Shown: piece by piece, positions 53,843 through 63,769 of the stretch
Layout of the letters: each line of letters starts with the position of its first letter
Numbering within the stretch: the stretch's first letter is position 1
Source: Odoribacter sp.
Lineage (GTDB): Bacteria > Bacteroidota > Bacteroidia > Bacteroidales > Muribaculaceae
NCBI GenBank assembly: GCA_023663145.1
Contig: JAMPHZ010000007.1
Coordinates: 23,028-87,027, forward strand
Direction of reading: 5' to 3'
DNA: 64,000 nucleotides
Translations under genes and position numbers: made by a program
The notes under the pieces: generated by a model
Seen by the model: only the letters and a program-made list of their open reading frames with translations
What the model was told of the DNA's origin: nothing
The model's database searches: none

Positions 53843-54880
53843 TCAATTAGAGGTTATCGCCACTTTTATAACGTTGTCGCGGCGGTTTTCAAATAGGTCG
53901 TAAGCCTCCTCAATCTGTGAGAATTGGAAGGTATGGGTAATCAGCGGAGTAGTGTCAATCTTACCTTCAGAGATAAGCCGAAGTATCTCGTCGCAGTCGC
54001 AACCATCAACGCCACCGATCTTGAACGTCAGATTTTTGCCATACATATCCGGCAATGGCAACACCTGTGGCTTGCCGTAAAGAGCTACGATAGAAACAAT
54101 CGCATTCGGTCGCGCCGTTTGCCAAGCCAACTGGAAAGTGTCATCCGCTCCCGCAACTTCAATCACACGGTCAGCACCGCCATGCTCCGAAAGCCGTAAG
54201 GTTTCCTCCAGACAATTCTCTGGGGATACGACAACTACATCCGGATAATGACTTTTTACAAACTCCTGACGTGCAGCATCCTTCTCACAGATAATAATCC
54301 GCTTCGGATTATATAGCCGAACGCACTGCAAAGTGCAAAGTCCGGTCGGCCCGGCACCGATAATCAGCACTGTATCCTCCTCACCAATCTCCGAAATCTT
54401 AGCCGCCCAATAACCGGTGGCAAGAATATCACCGACAAACAGAGCCTGCTCATTGCTCACATTATCTGGAATACGAGTCAGCCCATTGTCCGCAAACGGC
54501 ACACGCACAAACTCCGTCTGCCCACCATCAATCCGACAACCAAGTGCCCAACCGCCATTCGGGTCAGTGCAATTATTGACCCACCCATGACGGCAGAAGA
54601 AACACTCACCGCAGAACGTCTCCACATTCACCGCCACACGGTCGCCCGGCTTCACTTTAGTGACAGCCTCGCCAACACTCTCAACCACGCCGACCATCTC
54701 ATGCCCGACAGTAATTCCCGGCACAGCCTTCGGCACGCTCCCATGCTTGATATGCAGATCCGACGTGCAGATACTGCTCAGAGTCACTCTCACCACAGCA
54801 TCTGTCGCCTCCACAACCACCGGCTTCACCTTCTCCGTCACCTCAAACCGCCCTCTGGATATATACGTCAATGCTTTCAT
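53843..54880 (-). CDS. Zinc-dependent alcohol/aldehyde dehydrogenase (MDR, FDH-like subgroup)
   Basis: ICTSDLH, GHEMVG, CGECFFC....NNC structural Zn site, GDILATG, GAGPTG. Confidence 0.9.
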   Translation of the reverse strand: MKALTYISRGRFEVTEKVKPVVVEATDAVVRVTLSSICTSDLHIKHGSVPKAVPGITVGHEMVGVVESVGEAVTKVKPGDRVAVNVETFCGECFFCRHGWVNNCTDPNGGWALGCRIDGGQTEFVRVPFADNGLTRIPDNVSNEQALFVGDILATGYWAAKISEIGEEDTVLIIGAGPTGLCTLQCVRLYNPKRIIICEKDAARQEFVKSHYPDVVVVSPENCLEETLRLSEHGGADRVIEVAGADDTFQLAWQTARPNAIVSIVALYGKPQVLPLPDMYGKNLTFKIGGVDGCDCDEILRLISEGKIDTTPLITHTFQFSQIEEAYDLFENRRDNVIKVAITSN

Positions 54881-54936
54881 AATATAATTTTGTATCAGAT
54901 ATGAAAGTGGTGTGGGCTATACGTTATTGCATTGAC

Positions 54937-55974
54937 TTATGATTCCTCCACTGGGAGTTCTCTGCCAAAGTATGTACCATAAGATTTGCCAGAGACTTCT
55001 CCAACCTTATAATAATCGCCAATAAGTTTAAGAAGAATTTCGATATCTGATTCTTGAGATATAACAAGACGTCCGTTGGACGTTATATCTTTTTCTTTAT
55101 GACGTTTTGCAATTCGTTTCATGTTTTTGATAGCCTTATCATCAATCTGACGAATGCTTCCGACTTTTGCAATTCTTGCAAGTTTACGGTGAAGAGATGT
55201 ACCTGATTGTACTTTCTGAGATAGGATCTCTAAGCCGTCAATGCGTCCACAGGCTTCAAGATCTTTAACAACATTTTCTGCAGCTTCTTTGAATTCTTCT
55301 TGAATGCCAACTATTTGTTCAAAATTCAATTTGCGAAGCACAAAGAATGTTTCATCAAAGTATACACAGTCAACCGCACGGTCAAGTGCAACGACTTCAC
55401 CTTGTAGTAAGGTAAGTTTCTGACTTTTAGCGTTGAACAGCGTTTGAAAGAAAGACCGTTTCCCGCTTGCCTTCTCATCTATGGCTATCTTACTTCCAAG
55501 TATTCGTCTGAAAGTGTAAATAAAATTTCCATCATCTTCTTCGAATCCTACACAATATGCCCATAGCTCCTCATCTTTGCTTATAATCCCCTCAATGCTT
55601 TGCACTTTGGGGCACGGTTTTACTAGTTGGTTGATTACGACATCAGAGAATGCTAATTCTTTTTCTTTACCTTTTATCTTATAGGTAAAAAGAGATTCTG
55701 TGTCATCTGAAATTGGAGAATATTCTGATAGGGCGAGACCTTTCTTTATTACTCTATCCATCTCAGATATGGTGGCAGAGTAGAGATGGCCACGAATCTC
55801 ATCGTCTACATCAATTTGGTATACTTTGTAAATAAACTTTCCCATAACGGACTTTCTGCGCAATGCACTATCACGCAAAATCCTAGTCACAAAGTATAAC
55901 TTCGTATCGTCTGGTTTAGTCTGGGATATCCGTTCTCTCAGAGCCTCAATTTCAGTTGGAGAGCCTTTTCCCAT
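54937..55974 (-). CDS. kwaB: Kiwa anti-phage protein KwaB (DUF4868)
   Basis: FIYTFRR, D..VDCVY, NFEQIVG, KLA.I, G.YY C-terminal pattern; overlaps a KwaA-like TM gene. Confidence 0.8.
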   Translation of the reverse strand: MGKGSPTEIEALRERISQTKPDDTKLYFVTRILRDSALRRKSVMGKFIYKVYQIDVDDEIRGHLYSATISEMDRVIKKGLALSEYSPISDDTESLFTYKIKGKEKELAFSDVVINQLVKPCPKVQSIEGIISKDEELWAYCVGFEEDDGNFIYTFRRILGSKIAIDEKASGKRSFFQTLFNAKSQKLTLLQGEVVALDRAVDCVYFDETFFVLRKLNFEQIVGIQEEFKEAAENVVKDLEACGRIDGLEILSQKVQSGTSLHRKLARIAKVGSIRQIDDKAIKNMKRIAKRHKEKDITSNGRLVISQESDIEILLKLIGDYYKVGEVSGKSYGTYFGRELPVEES

Positions 55975-56572
55975 AAAATATTTTGAATCCTATTTGATAT
56001 AGTTTTATTTTCTCGTCCTCGGACATGCTATTCCCTTTCACGATTACTAACCCATCTCGTTGTTTATCCTTTCCACAGGTGTATTCTATATTGTAAATAG
56101 AATAACGAAGGTTAACTACAGGATTGATTAGTATCATATTGGAGCGGATATATACTCCATATATTATTGCCATTAAGAAGAAAAACGTAGTGACCTCTAC
56201 TACATCTTCACCATTGGTCGATATAAAGGGTATAATGTATGTTGCAATATATCCTAAAGACTCACTATTGCGGTTTTCTATTTTCTCGACAGTTGCTGTA
56301 TTACCATTTTTTGCATCTATGTCTAATTTTGACAAAAATATTCGACAACATAAGAGTGATAAAATAGAAATGAAGAGCAATATCAACGGTAACCAAAACA
56401 ATTTCAGACACAAAAATATACTGTCAAATGAAAATCCTCCAAATACAAGATAATCGCGTTTTATGAGCGTATATCTAATTGCTATTAAAAGAAATAATGG
56501 GATATATGACGTCAGGAAGAGCAGCAAAAGCGTCTTCCTATTCATCTCATTATTTCTAGTTATTGCTTCCAT
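55952..56572 (-). CDS. kwaA: Kiwa anti-phage transmembrane protein KwaA (start 56572 or 56545)
   Basis: FLTSYIPLF, N.ESLGYIATYIIPFI, IY.RSN.I.INP...L.YSIY; four TM segments. Confidence 0.82.
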   Translation of the reverse strand: MEAITRNNEMNRKTLLLLFLTSYIPLFLLIAIRYTLIKRDYLVFGGFSFDSIFLCLKLFWLPLILLFISILSLLCCRIFLSKLDIDAKNGNTATVEKIENRNSESLGYIATYIIPFISTNGEDVVEVTTFFFLMAIIYGVYIRSNMILINPVVNLRYSIYNIEYTCGKDKQRDGLVIVKGNSMSEDEKIKLYQIGFKIFYGKRLSN

Positions 56573-56575
56573 TAT

Positions 56576-58852
56576 TTAATTGTCTATTGAAAGCTTTTTC
56601 AATGTTGTATATATGGCATCATATCTTGATGGATCGCCACTGGGCAGTTTGCACCGTTGGCAGTCAAGGCTGGATGAGTCAAGCTCATCTGACATTTCGA
56701 TGTTGAGCAGGAGATAAAGATAATCTATCTCGTCGGGAATATCGTCCGGTTTCTTACGGTTACGGATATTCATGTACTCCACCGGAATATTCGGTTTCGG
56801 CACGACTTTCGGTTTCTCGCGCAACTTAAATAGATGTTGCGATGCTTGATTCCACTTATTAAAGAGGATGAAACCGATAGAGTCGATATTTTCGAGTAAT
56901 CGCATCCCCTCATCGTTATACAAGATAGGAACAGCAACTTTGCCGGTTTCTCTGAATTTAACAGCATTGTTGTCGTATTGCATATAGGCTAACATTACGA
57001 CACCATCTTTACCGGGAGTGGCTGCAATAGCAGTAGACGGAGGAGGCAAAAACGGGCGCGGGTCCACTCCAAGATTATTTAGTTTGACCCGAGAAAAAGC
57101 TGAATCAACAAGTTTGAGGATTCGAGCATTTTCAGCTGCCACTTCTGTGGCTACATTGGGGTCTCGCTCATATTCAGGATTGGCGAGAGCTAAAGCTACG
57201 ATACCTTTGTCCTCGTCGTATGGAGCAAAGACTTTTCCGATGATGTCTTTGAAGTTGAGTTTCAACCACTCCGAAAGATCTATGTTCGGAAAAGCACGAA
57301 GGGCGTGGAACTGGTATCGGTTGCTCAGTTCCTCGCGTATTTTGTCGCGGAATATGTTGCGGACTTTCTCGCGCCACTGCCGCTTTTGCATTGCATTGTC
57401 GCGAGCATAAAGCGACAGTACGAAAAGGAAGTTTACATCGTAGTGAGTAACAAGCAGAGTATCGCGGTCAAAGAGCCGATTAACATATTGTCGGGAAATG
57501 TGGGTCTTTGCCACTTTACCGGTTTCATCGATATGGTCGCGATAATTGAAGTCGGAAGGAACTTTGCCCGAAAGAAAAAAGTTTGGGATAACATTGTAGC
57601 CCTCTGTTACTTCGTCGCGGAGGCAAAAGTCGGTTTCCCTGCGGTCGCCTTGTTGCGCCTTTTCACCGAAAAACAGGTTGAGATTCCACTGAATTACATT
57701 GCGGGCGTAGGTGAACTGCTTAGCAACAGATTCACGTCCGATGCGATTCTTTTGCTTATAATACTTCGAGTCGCCGATGTAATAAGTGAGATGGTTGCTC
57801 TCTCGCTGTTCGTCTTCCTGGCTGGCACGGGTCAAAGAATCCCAGAGGAACAAATGGTCAACTTCCTTGCCGTCCTCCTGATGTTTGTTGATGCGGTCTG
57901 GGAAGGTGAAATCTCCGATAAGTTCGTCAATCATCGTTTCAAAAACAATGTTGAAGTTCTTTGCCAACAGGAACTCGTTCATTTGCGAAGCAATACGAAT
58001 TTGCTTTGATTGTTCAAAGAACGCAAAGCAAAGTTCCCAAAGTTCGAGAGCCTTGTCGGAGAAATACTTGTATTTAATCTGCCTGAGACGACGTATGCCG
58101 ATACCTTTTTCGAAGTACTGCCTGAAGCGTTTGCCGATGATGAGATCGTAATTGACGTTCACATCAACCGGGAAACCATACTCGCTTTTGATGTAATGTA
58201 AAATCGAGTAGAAGATAACAAGTAATTCCTCGTCGAAATTGACCTGCCGCTTTTTGGTTACAGGGTCGATATAGACAGGCTCGTTGTTCTGCACCACGAC
58301 TTGCGACTTGGCGATTGTTCGGTTCCAGTTTATCTTGTTATATCCTGAGTGGATATTCTTCAAGATGAACATAAACCAATCCTTGTTTCGCTTATTGAAG
58401 TCAATGAGCGAAAGCAGAATATCCAAGTAAGTATTGGCAGTGCGCTTTTTGCCGCGACCTTGTCTGACGATGTTTTGATGCCGGATTATGGTATGGTCGC
58501 GGTTTGAGGTCTTGCAGTCTTCTCGATAGACGGCAATAGCGCGGTATATCCAAACAGCCAAGCCGTAAATGAACTCCCGTTCCGTTTTTGTCAGAGGCGA
58601 GCCGTCGGCTTCAAGGTCTATGATGTCTTCGGGGCGGTGTCGCCCGAACACTTTCTCTTGACCTCCTGCCTCGTTGGCTTCGAGCACTACCTTAGGAAGA
58701 ATGAATACACTCTCCTGCTCGGCGGCATGATAATAGTAGCCAACGTAGTTGACTCTAACTTTGCCGTCGACAGGGTCGAGCTCGTCAATATTGGGAAACA
58801 ACTTGGTAACGGCTTCGACAGGGTAGTCATATTCCTCTGTAAGTAGTTTCAT
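56576..58852 (-). CDS. LlaJI-family (McrC-like) restriction endonuclease with C-terminal extension
   Basis: YVGYY, FILPKV, INWNRTI, FNIVFETMIDELI, VD...YIGDSKYY PD-(D/E)xK motif. Confidence 0.82.
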   Translation of the reverse strand: MKLLTEEYDYPVEAVTKLFPNIDELDPVDGKVRVNYVGYYYHAAEQESVFILPKVVLEANEAGGQEKVFGRHRPEDIIDLEADGSPLTKTEREFIYGLAVWIYRAIAVYREDCKTSNRDHTIIRHQNIVRQGRGKKRTANTYLDILLSLIDFNKRNKDWFMFILKNIHSGYNKINWNRTIAKSQVVVQNNEPVYIDPVTKKRQVNFDEELLVIFYSILHYIKSEYGFPVDVNVNYDLIIGKRFRQYFEKGIGIRRLRQIKYKYFSDKALELWELCFAFFEQSKQIRIASQMNEFLLAKNFNIVFETMIDELIGDFTFPDRINKHQEDGKEVDHLFLWDSLTRASQEDEQRESNHLTYYIGDSKYYKQKNRIGRESVAKQFTYARNVIQWNLNLFFGEKAQQGDRRETDFCLRDEVTEGYNVIPNFFLSGKVPSDFNYRDHIDETGKVAKTHISRQYVNRLFDRDTLLVTHYDVNFLFVLSLYARDNAMQKRQWREKVRNIFRDKIREELSNRYQFHALRAFPNIDLSEWLKLNFKDIIGKVFAPYDEDKGIVALALANPEYERDPNVATEVAAENARILKLVDSAFSRVKLNNLGVDPRPFLPPPSTAIAATPGKDGVVMLAYMQYDNNAVKFRETGKVAVPILYNDEGMRLLENIDSIGFILFNKWNQASQHLFKLREKPKVVPKPNIPVEYMNIRNRKKPDDIPDEIDYLYLLLNIEMSDELDSSSLDCQRCKLPSGDPSRYDAIYTTLKKLSIDN

Positions 58853-60789
58853 TAAGAGACGCGTATTATTTCAATCCCCCAAGATTTAGCCTTCTCTATT
58901 AGACGCTGCATATGCTGTTTCCTTAGCTGGGCCGAAACATAGAACTTTCGCCCGTCTGAAGTTTCAAATAGTTTTGAAGCTCTACTTTTAGAAATATCTG
59001 GGCGAGCATTAAACGTCTCTTCTGTTTCTAATGCGTGTTTAGGCAGTCCAAAGCTATTCCATTCTGATATAGCAGCTTCAGTGGAAATATCCGGATTTTT
59101 ATCAAAATATATTTTCAATGCAGCCAGGACGGTGTCAATCATATATGATTGTTTTTCGCCGTTGACTGTAAATGTTGGTTGAACCCAATCTCCGTCGCTA
59201 TTCTGGAGCAAACCTTCATGTCCCAAATCTGAATCGCCATCAACACCGTCTTCTTCATTACCTGTGGTAATAATGGGCCTCATTCCAAGATTATTGAGGA
59301 AGCGTTCAATCTGCGCTTCGTTTGCTTCGCCCGTTTCGTCGAAGTAAGAAGCAAAGGTCATGGGTTGCCCGTCGGTACCTTTGAAGTAATCCTCGTCAAA
59401 GCCAAAGTCTTTGAACACATCATTATAGAGAAAGAAGATTACTTTTGACAAGAAACGGTCGGCAGTGATAATACCGTCCTTTGACTTGGCAAAGAAGTAG
59501 CCGAGTTTCTTATCCTCCTGCTGTATTTCTCCTCCCTCGATGCGATTGTTGATTTCGGTAACGAAACTCCACCAATCGTAGACGTTCCCATTAGAAAATA
59601 CAATCTTGTAATCTTTCTTCGCGTCTTTGATTTTGATGTACTTCCAATCCCAACGACGTTTGAAAGCGGAGTCAATCGGGAACAACGATTGGTCAGAGGT
59701 GTTCATCGTTGCCCATATATAGAGGTTGTTCGGCAGAAGAAGCTGCTTGCCGCTTTTGACGCTGTCGACAACATCTTTACCTCCCTTATAAAGCGAGTTA
59801 ATGGCTTCGGGATTGGCGACACTCAATTTCTCGAATTCGCGTTTAAGTTCCTGAGCGAGGTCGTCGTCAGCAACAATCGGATAATCTGAGTAGCCGGACT
59901 CGTTGCGGTCAAGCAATTGGAATATGTCACCAAAAATCTGAGCGCAGTTGCCTCGGTTGATTTCCTCCACAACGAGGAACACCGGCTTAGGGTTTTCGTT
60001 TTGTTGCTCTCTCCACGCTGCGATGTATGCTTTCAGGAAGGCTTGGAAAACGTAAGTGTAAACAATACGTTTTTCAAGGTATGCATTACCTTGTTGGTCG
60101 TATTTTGTTACGACCTCCGTAATTGGTTTGTATGAACCTACGAAAGAGGCGTAATCGGTGTCAGGGTGGAAAGTTGTTCGGTAATTCTCATATTGAGCGC
60201 AGGCTTCGTTAATCTTAAATGACTTGCCTGTGCCCGGAGCGCCAAAGAATATCTGCTGTAACGGTTCGCTGAGTTTGGCCGGGGTATCCGTTATCTCTTC
60301 AACATCAATTGGAGCATCCAATTCTTCCTGGGATGTTATGACACGAATAGATAATTGTCCATCTTGGCTCTTGCAGAAGTCCAATTGAGTATGTTTTTCT
60401 ATTAAGAATGACCGCAAATTAAACCCATTAGAGAGTTTCAATCCATTCAAGTAGTTTCTTCCGTCATCTCTTTTGAGGTGACCAACAGTATAAAGTACAG
60501 AATCATTATCACCAAATGCTGATTGAATTTGAGATAAGAGTTTTGGATATATGCTGAGTAGGTTTGCTGGAGATGTTTCTTTTTTATAGTATAGAGGCAG
60601 AAGTACGCATACATAACTTAATGCAAGTATCAAATCTTGCTTGTATATTCTAAATGCGACTTCACCACTCTCATCAGAAATGAAATTGGAAATTTCCGTA
60701 GAAAGGTTGATGCTTGTTTCGTTGGAGCTGCTTGGTGTCAACTTGAAATCAACATCTTGTCGTGAAACGATTTTTGAAAGTTTATTCAT
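58852..60789 (-). CDS. McrB-like AAA+ GTPase (LlaJI R1-like) with N- and C-terminal accessory domains
   Basis: GAPGTGKS Walker A, VEEINRGN Walker B, TMNTSDQ NxxD signature, FKRRW; TAATG overlap with the nuclease gene. Confidence 0.88.
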   Translation of the reverse strand: MNKLSKIVSRQDVDFKLTPSSSNETSINLSTEISNFISDESGEVAFRIYKQDLILALSYVCVLLPLYYKKETSPANLLSIYPKLLSQIQSAFGDNDSVLYTVGHLKRDDGRNYLNGLKLSNGFNLRSFLIEKHTQLDFCKSQDGQLSIRVITSQEELDAPIDVEEITDTPAKLSEPLQQIFFGAPGTGKSFKINEACAQYENYRTTFHPDTDYASFVGSYKPITEVVTKYDQQGNAYLEKRIVYTYVFQAFLKAYIAAWREQQNENPKPVFLVVEEINRGNCAQIFGDIFQLLDRNESGYSDYPIVADDDLAQELKREFEKLSVANPEAINSLYKGGKDVVDSVKSGKQLLLPNNLYIWATMNTSDQSLFPIDSAFKRRWDWKYIKIKDAKKDYKIVFSNGNVYDWWSFVTEINNRIEGGEIQQEDKKLGYFFAKSKDGIITADRFLSKVIFFLYNDVFKDFGFDEDYFKGTDGQPMTFASYFDETGEANEAQIERFLNNLGMRPIITTGNEEDGVDGDSDLGHEGLLQNSDGDWVQPTFTVNGEKQSYMIDTVLAALKIYFDKNPDISTEAAISEWNSFGLPKHALETEETFNARPDISKSRASKLFETSDGRKFYVSAQLRKQHMQRLIEKAKSWGIEIIRVS

Positions 60790-61859
60790 TTGTGTGAGAG
60801 ATTTAAGTGAATGAACAAGTAGTAGAGAACTGCGTATATTACATTAACGCTGACGGCGTTTCCCGCTTGTTTGTATAATGCTCCATCGCAAACTTTAGCG
60901 TGTTGAGCATTATTGACAAACTGAGCAGTAAAACCTTGAAGGGCAAACGCCTCATGAGGCGTTAACTTACGAATAGGCTGCTTTGCGAGTTCCTCTTTAG
61001 AGAAAACCCGTGAGAGGTACTCAATAGGGTTTTCAGAATGGATAAAACCATCACTGTAATAATTATCTTGACAGGCGCGGTGCATTTTATGCATGGTTGC
61101 AGTCAAGGGACGAGCAATAATTTGATTGATTTCAGATTTAGATACAAAGTTTTTCGAGCCATCAGCCAACAGTGTCGGTTTAATCTTTTCAGATAGATAA
61201 TATTTAGAGGGCACCTCCTTAGCAAGAACATCCAATACGGAATTTTGAAGGATTAGCGATGAAAATTCAGACAGGTGTTCATGAAAAAGATTTGCTATTT
61301 CTTCTGCCTTGAATGAGAAATTCTTTCCAAGGTTATCAGTTGTAGCAAAAATAATGACACGGCTGCGTTTTTGGGCAAGTTGGAAATCTATTGAATTAAA
61401 TACATCGAAATAAACATTGTAACCAAGTTTCTTGAGTCTACGATGTATCTCCTTAAATGTATTACCCTTGTCGTGAGAAAGCAAATTCTTAACATTTTCG
61501 AGGATTACGAAGCGGGGACGTTTCAGATTGAGAATTGTCTCAATCTGAAAAAACATAGTTCCTCTGCTATCCTCAAATCCTTTCTGTTTGCCCATCATGC
61601 TAAAAGCTTGACAAGGGAAACCTCCTGTAAGCAAATCGAAATCTATATTGTTGTATCGAGATAGATTTGAATTAAACTCTACTATGTCTCCCATCTCAAT
61701 TTCATTTGAGGTGTCAAAGTTTGCCTTATAAGTTTTGGTGGCATTAGCATCTATTTCAGAAAAGGCTTGACAATCAAATGTAAAGTCGAAGTCTTTCTGT
61801 ATATTCTCCATGGCCGTCCTAAAACCGCCTACACCAGCAAATAATTCAATATGTTTCAT
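60786..61859 (-). CDS. DNA (cytosine-5) methyltransferase M2
   Basis: ELFAGVGG, GDI, GGFPCQAFS, LENVKNL, QKRSRV, LYKQAGNAV. Confidence 0.93.
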   Translation of the reverse strand: MKHIELFAGVGGFRTAMENIQKDFDFTFDCQAFSEIDANATKTYKANFDTSNEIEMGDIVEFNSNLSRYNNIDFDLLTGGFPCQAFSMMGKQKGFEDSRGTMFFQIETILNLKRPRFVILENVKNLLSHDKGNTFKEIHRRLKKLGYNVYFDVFNSIDFQLAQKRSRVIIFATTDNLGKNFSFKAEEIANLFHEHLSEFSSLILQNSVLDVLAKEVPSKYYLSEKIKPTLLADGSKNFVSKSEINQIIARPLTATMHKMHRACQDNYYSDGFIHSENPIEYLSRVFSKEELAKQPIRKLTPHEAFALQGFTAQFVNNAQHAKVCDGALYKQAGNAVSVNVIYAVLYYLFIHLNLSHK

Positions 61860-62992
61860 AGGAATGATGCTATTGCTGTTCCAATTACATATGCAAGTTT
61901 GACAGGTACAGCATTACCTATCTGAGCATACCACATATTTTGAGCACCATAAAAAATGAAATCATCAGGGAATGTTTGTATTCGGGCTGCTTCTCTCGGA
62001 GAGAGACCACGAGAATACCAAGGATGGATATACATATTGCAATCATATCTCATATGAGAAGTGATTGTCTTACAAATTCGGTCGTCTTGTAACTTAAAAT
62101 ATTTATCTTTGAATATATCATTTCGACGGGAGTAAGGCATTATATCTGCAATGGATGGATGTAACGAATTACCACCTTGTGGTAGTCTTGTGTATATTTC
62201 AACATCGCGCGGATTATTATACCTGTTCTTATGATTGTATAGAATGTCTATTTGACGGTCTCCGTTAATGAACTGGTAAAATTTTGTATTAGGATACTGA
62301 AAAGGTATTTGGGTGTACCCCGAAATATCATTTTCAATATCATTTTTTCCTTTTTCAGCCTTAACACCCAAAGATGGGAGTCCGAAAAGCGCATCACCTA
62401 AAACAAATGAAGGATGTTTCATTGAGAAGATTTTATCAAAAATTTTCTCGGGATCAATCCCTAAGCGGTTTCCGATTACAATGAATCGCTCCCTGTGCTG
62501 AGGGACACCATAATCTTCTGCAAGAAGCAACTTACCTGTAAACTGGTATTGATGGCTATCGGAATTAAGAAAAGTATTAAAGTCGGTTTCAATTTCGTTC
62601 CACCGTGATTGCATCCCTCGAACATTTTCCATTATAAAAAATTGAGGTCTAACTTTGCAAAGAAATTTAAGATACTCCTTGTAAAGCATATTTCGGGGAT
62701 CATCAATAATACGTTGGCGATTGGCCATAGAGAATCCTTGGCACGGTGGACCTCCGCAAACAAGACTTATACCATTAAATTTTTCAGAGGAGGCAGGGAG
62801 ATGTGAATTTAATTCGCATATATCTCCAATAAAACAATCATCCGAAGAAAGATTGCGATTGTGCCGATATGTTTCGCAGAACTGAGGAACGATTTCATTT
62901 ACAAGTACAGGTGTGAAGCCGGCTTGTTCGAGGCCCAAAGAGAGACCTCCACATCCGGCAAACAAATCTATAAAATCTAATCGTTTCCTCAT
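61856..62992 (-). CDS. DNA (cytosine-5) methyltransferase M1 (likely start 62992)
   Basis: DLFAGCGG, GGPPCQGFS, MENVRG, YGVPQHRER, REAARIQTFPD, QIGNAVP. Confidence 0.93.
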   Translation of the reverse strand: MRKRLDFIDLFAGCGGLSLGLEQAGFTPVLVNEIVPQFCETYRHNRNLSSDDCFIGDICELNSHLPASSEKFNGISLVCGGPPCQGFSMANRQRIIDDPRNMLYKEYLKFLCKVRPQFFIMENVRGMQSRWNEIETDFNTFLNSDSHQYQFTGKLLLAEDYGVPQHRERFIVIGNRLGIDPEKIFDKIFSMKHPSFVLGDALFGLPSLGVKAEKGKNDIENDISGYTQIPFQYPNTKFYQFINGDRQIDILYNHKNRYNNPRDVEIYTRLPQGGNSLHPSIADIMPYSRRNDIFKDKYFKLQDDRICKTITSHMRYDCNMYIHPWYSRGLSPREAARIQTFPDDFIFYGAQNMWYAQIGNAVPVKLAYVIGTAIASFL

Positions 62993-63268
62993 AAATGAAA
63001 ACAAGAAAACTTCCAAGTAGGCAGACAGGCGACCAAACCTTTTGCGACTACAAGGAAGTTCCTTTATATGTTTTTATATAAGTTATTACTTACATATGTA
63101 CGGTCATTTGTCTGCGCGAGCGCGTTTTAGATTGCAAAATTACAAAAAATTTTCGAGATTTCCTAATCATGGAACACAGTTAACATACCGGTTAACACTC
63201 TGACCGTCTGAGCCTCACAAATTACGCAGCCTCCTACATTAGTGTCTTTATCTATAGAGGAGAATCAT

Positions 63269-63769
63269 TTAGCCACCATATGGCATGTTTGGTTCTGCTG
63301 CTATTGTTCTATTGTCAATTTCATTGGATTGATAGTGTGTAATATTGGATGATTGTGTTATGCTGGCATAAAGCTGTTGGAGAGTTTCCTCGCGTCTGGC
63401 TTTTGTCCGAATCTCACATTCCCATATTCGTATCACTCTCCATCCTGCAAGTTTGAGGTCAACATTGTTGGCGTAGTCTCGTGCAATGTTCATCGCAATC
63501 TTATGCCTCCAGAAGTCAATGTTTGATTTTGGCAACCGAAAGTATTTGCAGTTTTTATGACCATGCCAGAAACATCCGTCAATGAATACGACAGTCTTAT
63601 ATTTCTTCAAGACAATATCGGGTGACCCCGGCAGTTTACGATTGTAGACACGATAACGCAGACCGCGAGAGAAAAGATACTTCCGCACAATCATCTCCGG
63701 CGTCGTATCCTTCCCCTTGATAGCTGCCATATTCTGGCTTCGTTGTTCAGGAGTCTTTATATCTGTCAT
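63269..63769 (-). CDS. vsr: Very short patch repair endonuclease
   Basis: D..TPEQRS.NM.AIK.KDT.PE, LPGSPDI, FIDGCFWHGH, GWRVIRIWECE. Confidence 0.93.
   Translation of the reverse strand: MTDIKTPEQRSQNMAAIKGKDTTPEMIVRKYLFSRGLRYRVYNRKLPGSPDIVLKKYKTVVFIDGCFWHGHKNCKYFRLPKSNIDFWRHKIAMNIARDYANNVDLKLAGWRVIRIWECEIRTKARREETLQQLYASITQSSNITHYQSNEIDNRTIAAEPNMPYGG

Follow-up and report, generated by a model that had tools for sequence, protein, structure and literature searches.

The stretch of DNA analysed here (the window) comprises 64,000 nucleotides (nt) of contig JAMPHZ010000007.1 (positions 23,028 to 87,027) from a gut Muribaculaceae genome, deposited as Odoribacter sp., of 2.25 Mb and 99% completeness, whose closest relatives are Sangeribacter and metagenome-assembled genomes of Muribaculaceae. 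On its minus strand, a restriction operon of the LlaJI type is directly followed by the two genes of a Kiwa defence system. Read from 63769 down to 53843, the order of the genes is vsr, M1, M2, R1, R2, kwaA, kwaB and adh. The individual features, with lengths in amino acids (aa) and the matches on which their naming is based, are the following:

63269-63769, minus strand: vsr, very-short-patch repair endonuclease (PF03852 3.8e-33; TIGR00632 2.3e-44)
63008-63162, minus strand: promoter/leader region of the LlaJI-type operon (exact TAnnTTTG match)
61856-62992, minus strand: M1, 5-methylcytosine (m5C) DNA methyltransferase, 378 aa (PF00145 3.4e-66; PADLOC MTase_II 1e-87)
60786-61859, minus strand: M2, second m5C DNA methyltransferase (PF00145 3e-76; TIGR00675 1.4e-78)
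58852-60789, minus strand: R1, McrB-like GTPase subunit (AAA_5 1.3e-6; PADLOC REase_II 1e-40)
56576-58852, minus strand: R2, LlaJI-family (McrC-like) nuclease subunit, 758 aa (names of homologues; PF09563 matches of homologues)
56573-56700, minus strand: cassette junction R2/kwaA (blastn end points, alignment, identity profile)
55952-56572, minus strand: kwaA, Kiwa membrane subunit, 206 aa (PADLOC PDLC00212 2.2e-57)
54937-55974, minus strand: kwaB, Kiwa DUF4868 effector, 345 aa (PF16162; PADLOC PDLC00223 1.4e-95)
53843-54880, minus strand: adh, Zn-dependent alcohol dehydrogenase (ADH_N and ADH_zinc_N matches)

The six genes from M1 to kwaB form a chain of overlaps and tiny gaps, and every junction claimed in a preliminary description of this locus was reproduced in the coordinates of the open reading frames (ORFs) as well as in the sequence. 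The stop codon of M1 and the start codon of M2 overlap in an ATGA at 61859-61856, M2 and R1 overlap in the same way at 60789-60786, and R1 and R2 share 1 nt in a TAATG at 58854-58850. The stop codon of R2 (56578-56576) is followed by a spacer of only 3 nt (56575-56573) and then by the ATG of kwaA at 56572, while kwaA shares its last 23 nt with kwaB (55952-55974). The GC content changes in steps along the locus (M1/M2 0.38, R1 0.42, R2 0.46, kwaA 0.33, kwaB 0.39), so that the island ranges from 0.33 to 0.46, compared to 0.52 for adh and 0.47 for the whole window.

LlaJI, which is encoded on pNP40 of Lactococcus lactis, restricts unmethylated DNA by a GTP-driven, McrBC-like machinery (PMC1459862). 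The proposal that the first four genes of the chain constitute such a system held up well: the co-oriented layout M1-M2-R1-R2 fits the published LlaJI definition, the ORFs overlap by 4, 4 and 1 nt, both M1 and M2 match PF00145 and hence supply the two m5C methyltransferases, and R1 is the McrB-like GTPase (PMC1459862). As start codon of M1, the ATG at 62992 is more likely than the TTG at 63016, and the resulting length of 378 aa equals that of the orthologues in the two nearest operons, which are located on the metagenomic contigs L083 and L084. As in LlaJI, R1 starts with a unique N-terminus (approximately residues 1-170) that is followed by the McrB-like AAA+ core (approximately 180-460), and it matches solved McrB chains with E-values from 2.3e-10 to 8.7e-7 (PDB 6ut3 2e-10, 6hz4 2e-7). 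Different from LlaJI is the additional C-terminal tail of R1 (residues 506-645, nt 58852-59285). This tail is unalignable with R1 of L083 and L084, although R1 is otherwise 94% identical to these proteins and the DNA on both sides of the segment is also 94% identical. For this reason, R1 bears a swappable C-terminal domain of about 140 aa.

R2 is more difficult to classify. The protein itself misses PF09563 and has no Pfam match even at E=10, and neither phmmer nor a profile search against the PDB sequences returned a match. Its homologues number in the thousands, some of them are named LlaJI family restriction endonuclease, and those with 70-84% identity to R2 match PF09563 with 24.7-27.7 bits (cut-off 23.6). 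The homologue alignment shows no variation in D332 and in the D361-S-K363 motif, which is in line with a predicted PD-(D/E)xK-type motif as in LlaJI. A further difference to LlaJI is the length of 758 aa, since about 250 C-terminal residues (approximately 500-758; 56576-57350) extend past the PF09563-like core. An AlphaFold2 model built from an alignment of 15 sequences was poor (mean predicted local distance difference test score, pLDDT, of 54; core below 50), and exactly these C-terminal residues are its sole well-modelled part (pLDDT 70-89). When the model was compared to the PDB with Foldseek, no structure was found at E<=0.001, and the best matches, weak YTH/EVE-like ones at E 0.25-0.7 for the model as a whole, are non-significant and were not relied on. 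The last approximately 11% of R2 are unaligned in many homologues. A tblastn search with R2 against a plasmid collection matched a Pedobacter plasmid only; a lactococcal (pNP40) record was not among the results.

Kiwa, consisting of KwaA and KwaB, was reportedly introduced as an anti-phage system by Doron et al. in 2018. It senses the membrane disturbance at phage attachment, and the DNA binder KwaB blocks phage replication and late transcription; the DNA-mimic inhibitor Gam is split between Kiwa and RecBCD (PMC11785009). That a complete Kiwa pair forms the last cassette of the operon, as had been suggested, is borne out by full-length matches to both PADLOC models (kwaA: PDLC00212, positions 3-202 of 205; kwaB: PDLC00223, positions 12-335 of 339) and by the DUF4868 family PF16162, which kwaB matches with 72.9 bits (cut-off 26.3). 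As in known Kiwa systems, both genes lie on one strand with kwaA directly upstream of kwaB, and KwaA is a small multi-pass membrane protein with three to four hydrophobic segments in the hydropathy profile. Nevertheless, the scores stay below the NCBIfam equivalog cut-offs NF041622 and NF041623 (kwaA 91.8 vs 100 bits, kwaB 38.3 vs 200 bits), and the Kiwa system of the window belongs to a divergent clade. It is a Bacteroidales clade distant from the studied E. coli systems. Moreover, these were cloned with their native promoters, whereas the pair in the window lacks a spacer in front of it and is fused to the last gene of another operon.

The preliminary description had regarded LlaJI and Kiwa as a candidate composite defence unit, in which Kiwa backs up or guards the restriction enzyme. 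Several observations seem to favor a selected, functionally coupled composite of this kind: the 3-nt junction is of the translational-coupling type, no promoter motif lies within the operon, the identical junction recurs in another genome after an LlaJI variant other than that of the window (L092, see below), and the literature neither describes nor excludes the pair. Indeed, our literature search did not reveal any paper that links LlaJI with Kiwa, so that the coupling seems to be undescribed, as had been assumed. The distribution of the two systems points in the opposite direction. We collected 80 LlaJI loci from species-representative genomes by means of the R2 homologue alignment, mostly from Muribaculaceae, Bacteroides and Prevotella. 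In tblastn searches with the window proteins, R1 and R2 were found throughout, but kwaAB was present within 10 kb in none of the 80 loci. Distant Kiwa variants that tblastn might have missed do not account for this result, because a whole-genome search with PF16162 did not find KwaB anywhere in the 78 LlaJI genomes, whereas all three positive controls (G000, G029 and G194) gave a match. In a sample of the phylum, 12 of 401 genomes contain KwaB; at this rate about two matches are expected by chance, and therefore LlaJI genomes are not enriched for Kiwa. A lack of enrichment of the gene order, which is what we found, had been named in the preliminary description itself as evidence that would speak against the proposal.

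The closest relatives of the operon lead to the same result. In L083 and L084 the layout is M1(378)-M2(357)-R1-R2 as in the window, and R2 is 96% and 95% identical at the aa level. At the nucleotide level both contigs share 94% identity with the window over two segments, vsr to 59285 and 58851 to 56598. According to blastn, this homology ends at 56598, 22 nt before the stop codon of R2, and instead of Kiwa both sister operons continue with a gene for a SIR2 protein of 644 aa with a ThsA-like PADLOC match. Close fusion to R2 is also not a peculiarity of Kiwa. Among the 67 LlaJI loci with enough downstream sequence for a tally of the next gene, the gene after R2 is co-oriented in 58, and the gap is at most 24 nt in 24 loci, 13 of them with overlapping genes. 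The genes found in this position are diverse: SIR2-HerA together with SoFic (L004-L006), an M78 peptidase with RhuM/PDC-S05 (L016, L022), PD-Lambda-5, which overlaps the stop codon of R2 by 4 nt (L017), PDC-M37 after a gap of 5 nt (L023), and in further loci Vsr, pAgo/SIR2, GajA and CapP-like proteins. The conserved chromosomal flank adh, in turn, is also present in L016, L017, L022, L023, L093 and L099. Because diverse defence genes follow R2 and the adh flank is common to several loci, the slot between R2 and adh is a variable cassette position, where tight fusion to R2 is the norm. An obligate composite unit of the type of PrrC and EcoprrI would show co-occurrence of its parts, but Kiwa is missing from all 80 LlaJI loci and occurs in at least five other contexts, with its relatives at 80% and 62% identity following BREX or a Type IIG system with GmrSD. 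Together with the sister operons and the equally tight cassettes of L017 and L023, this makes a selected composite of LlaJI and Kiwa very improbable, and the earlier proposal is not sustained in this respect.

The context of the Kiwa genes themselves is equally instructive. The closest pair is found in L092, a JGI contig, where kwaA (97.6% identity) and kwaB (95.7%) are located directly behind a different LlaJI variant with a single, unrelated methyltransferase, an R1 of 76% and an R2 of 88% identity. The junction between R2 and kwaA is identical to that of the window. Along the alignment, identity is 66-84% over most of R2, rises to 96-99% from approximately 56700 to 55650 and amounts to 84-91% in the 3' half of kwaB. 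This mosaic looks like the signature of recombination, in which the cassette would have moved together with the tail of R2. Relatives with 80% identity (L093, L094, L088) are located after the BREX genes BrxC-PglZ-BrxL and before RhuM and adh, and those with 62% identity (L086, L098) after a PLD-SNF2 helicase, a Type IIG methyltransferase, a GmrSD-like protein and a small DprA-like protein. Among these contexts of the window clade, the similarity starts at the start codon of kwaA, and the sequences past the stop codon of kwaB have no common element among the contexts compared. Since the sequences after kwaB differ in this way, an integron-like mechanism with a conserved recombination site or an attC-like element at the right end of Kiwa was rejected.

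If Kiwa does not belong to LlaJI in particular, it might still belong to restriction systems in general. According to this idea, Kiwa of Bacteroidota would preferentially ride without a promoter behind any methylation-based restriction system in a real functional partnership, and the fusion to LlaJI in the window would be one product of that rule. The partnership may consist of shared regulation together with the partitioning of DNA-mimic inhibitors between the restriction enzyme and KwaB, or of KwaB acting on DNA engaged by the restriction enzyme; a partitioning of this kind has been described for Kiwa and RecBCD (PMC11785009). We compared 13 independent Kiwa contexts from Bacteroidota, for which two genomes from the order level and ten from the phylum level were added to the loci above. 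In seven of the 13, the gene pair immediately follows a methylation-based restriction system of the same orientation (LlaJI, BREX, Type IIG with GmrSD, Type IIG, and three times Type I), with a gap of at most 31 nt in six of these. True nesting is found in L120 (G859:C1, 3819-11349), where kwaA and kwaB lie between hsdS and hsdR in the order hsdM-hsdS-kwaA-kwaB-hsdR. In L122 (G481:C1, 922-13414), hsdM, an OLD/GajA-like ATPase, hsdS, kwaA and kwaB are followed by hsdR further on, and L118 (G672:C7, 2508-7703) contains hsdM-hsdS-kwaA-kwaB. The spacing between hsdS and kwaA in these three loci ranges from an overlap of 4 nt to a gap of 26 nt. The beginning of the homology at the kwaA start codon in the window clade fits to the same idea, as does the fact that embedded defence systems are co-oriented with their host in 96.7% of cases (Payne et al., bioRxiv 10.1101/2024.01.29.577857). 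However, the sample of 13 contexts is small and has no baseline for other defence systems, and restriction-modification (R-M) systems constitute the commonest neighbors in defence islands anyway. One of the 13 pairs is part of a mobilisable element, where a Schlafen-like ATPase precedes it, and five have spacers of 119-725 nt, four contexts combining an upstream spacer of 288-725 nt with neighbors other than R-M systems. In addition, the LlaJI genomes are not enriched for Kiwa, and the pairing of Kiwa with ietAS, the only tested Kiwa pairing in the literature searched, showed little synergy. A general partnership therefore appears unlikely to us. If the association of Kiwa with restriction systems should exceed the baseline, it would nevertheless make a testable case for the cooperation of a membrane-triggered system with a DNA-based discrimination of self and non-self.

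How Kiwa is transcribed in the window has to be deduced from promoter and terminator signals. A single intergenic promoter motif of the Bacteroidetes type exists in the operon: TAATTTTG, an exact match to the -7 consensus TAnnTTTG on the minus strand, 143 nt upstream of the M1 ATG. The motif announced in the preliminary description is thus present, but at 63135-63142 and not at 63134-63141, i.e. one base off. The surrounding region between vsr and M1 (63008-63162) is 82% identical to that of the LlaJI variants L004, L006 and L092, whose methyltransferase gene is unrelated to those of the window (27-28% aa identity); it is a candidate for a conserved regulatory region and, possibly, an anchor for recombination. 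The further claim that no promoter or terminator precedes kwaA was confirmed within the limits of the motif scans. The coding strand of R2, i.e. the 2.3 kb before kwaA, contains no exact TAnnTTTG and no version with one mismatch combined with a -33 TTTG, and the promoter candidates nearest upstream of kwaA sit inside R1. Terminator-like matches stay at the level of shuffled sequences (10 found vs 8.2 expected), with none at the gene junctions. A scan for promoters of the sigma-70 type gave matches at the level of the shuffles and was discarded as uninformative for Bacteroidetes. Because the junctions are too tight for an intergenic promoter and neither a promoter nor a terminator motif was found, the simplest reading of the sequence is that Kiwa is probably co-transcribed with the LlaJI genes from the M1 promoter.

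Alternatively, a cryptic promoter within the 3' end of R2 might drive Kiwa separately, or kwaB might be transcribed from inside kwaA, so that the adjacency to LlaJI would have no regulatory meaning. In favor of this, the tract with 96-99% identity to L092 already begins within R2, approximately 125 nt before kwaA, and other Kiwa loci are preceded by long spacers and presumably by promoters of their own. In addition, the best promoter-like match of the operon after the M1 promoter, TATTTTTG, is located inside kwaA (minus strand, 56411-56418) and has a -33 TTTG at a distance of about 19 nt upstream. A genuine promoter at this site would produce a transcript of kwaB only. However, TATTTTTG lies in T-rich sequence coding for a membrane helix and probably matches by chance. 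The 125 nt in common with L092, moreover, are ordinary coding sequence of R2, which can also be aligned with the SIR2-bearing operons, and the scan of R2 for exact -7 motifs and for motifs with one mismatch plus a -33 element was empty. We therefore think it improbable that Kiwa is transcribed separately.

Taking the comparisons together, we consider it likely that Kiwa is an independent, exchangeable cassette that was swapped in behind the LlaJI operon in a defence-island hotspot and is probably co-transcribed with it. The region would represent the end of a chromosomal defence island abutting the conserved adh, and homologous recombination might have placed Kiwa where related strains carry other defence cassettes. 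Of the two crossovers, one would fall into the final stretch of R2 (approximately its last 25-125 nt) and the second within kwaB and the adh flank or past them. Since the Kiwa cassette starts with its own start codon and lacks a preceding promoter or terminator motif, it would most likely be read through from the putative LlaJI promoter near 63135-63142. By analogy to the mechanisms described for the two systems (PMC1459862, PMC11785009), LlaJI and Kiwa could act in parallel, as a layered and co-regulated but mutually independent defence.

Some observations weigh against this interpretation. The same junction of R2 and kwaA is present behind two LlaJI variants, and the pair could perhaps be kept by selection and not by mere copying. 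The seven of 13 contexts behind restriction systems are a lead in the direction of a partnership, even though that figure stands without a baseline for other defence systems and is a lead only. Furthermore, the step of co-transcription is drawn from sequence, and a single consensus was used for the promoter scan.

As an exchangeable cassette behind a restriction operon, the pair of LlaJI and Kiwa is a new instance of an already known pattern of embedded defence. Payne et al. report frequent embedding of co-oriented defence systems within the operons of Type I R-M, BREX, DISARM and Hma systems and speak of 'guilt by embedding' (bioRxiv 10.1101/2024.01.29.577857). Examples are PrrC in EcoprrI, BrxU in BREX and TgvAB in a Type I R-M system of V. 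cholerae (PMC11411939). Kiwa in the window resembles these cases, since it is co-oriented with its host, separated from it by a gap of 3 nt, and present in some and absent from other homologous hosts. The benefits proposed by Payne et al. for embedding, co-regulation and complementary targeting, are also those that our interpretation would assign to the window. In contrast to the embedded systems, Kiwa is not nested within its host operon but appended after the last LlaJI gene, with the core gene adh behind it. Moreover, the host is an LlaJI operon, a hybrid of Type II and Type IV, and lies outside the survey of Payne et al.; Kiwa is unmentioned in the text and supplements of that study that we examined (bioRxiv 10.1101/2024.01.29.577857).

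The region also shares features with defence-island hotspots, as it combines a conserved core flank (adh), strain-variable cargo and a mosaic identity that points to recombination. Core defence hotspots are known from P. aeruginosa. For hotspots of E. coli, Hochhauser et al. 2023, as far as their work is cited in PMC11411939, describe exchangeable cargo between conserved flanks. A difference is that in the window a defence gene, R2, provides one anchor with its 3' end, in place of a housekeeping gene, and the operon-like fusion is therefore kept in swaps. With the swaps anchored in the 3' end of R2 and in the core flank, a new cassette would thus inherit the transcription of the restriction operon.

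The locus does not reveal a new mechanism, but it is a well-resolved example of how defence islands of gut Bacteroidales are rebuilt by swaps of whole cassettes, with a restriction gene's 3' end and a core flank as the anchors. This is of practical use for annotation: any gene that these genomes carry in fusion behind an LlaJI-type R2 makes a good defence candidate. Operons of this kind also offer natural material for the study of co-regulated layered immunity.

The flanks of the island deserve a short description as well. At the upstream end, vsr had been noted just upstream of the promoter, and its identity (TIGR00632 2.3e-44) and position are correct, but the gene is the last one of another m5C module, which is partly decayed and continues past the window. 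The ATG of vsr abuts the stop codon of the upstream ORF (TAA, then ATG). Beyond vsr (L002, 10798-15517, equivalent to 63770-68489 in window numbering) there are two small ORFs of 192 and 213 aa, a GHKL ATPase of 712 aa and a split m5C methyltransferase. L083 likewise possesses a methyltransferase-GHKL-Vsr module upstream of its LlaJI operon. The two parts of the split methyltransferase (235 and 164 aa) align in one frame and with 94% identity to an intact protein of 409 aa from L083, and this single-frame alignment suggests that the gene was split by an in-frame stop codon. The GHKL ATPase of the window contig is only 31% identical to that of L083, and a gene of 435 aa in L083 is replaced by the unrelated ORFs of 192 and 213 aa. 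The module upstream of vsr looks like another mosaic, partly decayed system.

At the other end, the spacer between kwaB and adh (54881-54936) measures 56 nt and its coding strand contains neither a promoter motif nor a hairpin. For this reason, adh may receive read-through from the island or have its promoter within kwaB. Relatives carry RhuM or Fic genes ahead of adh.

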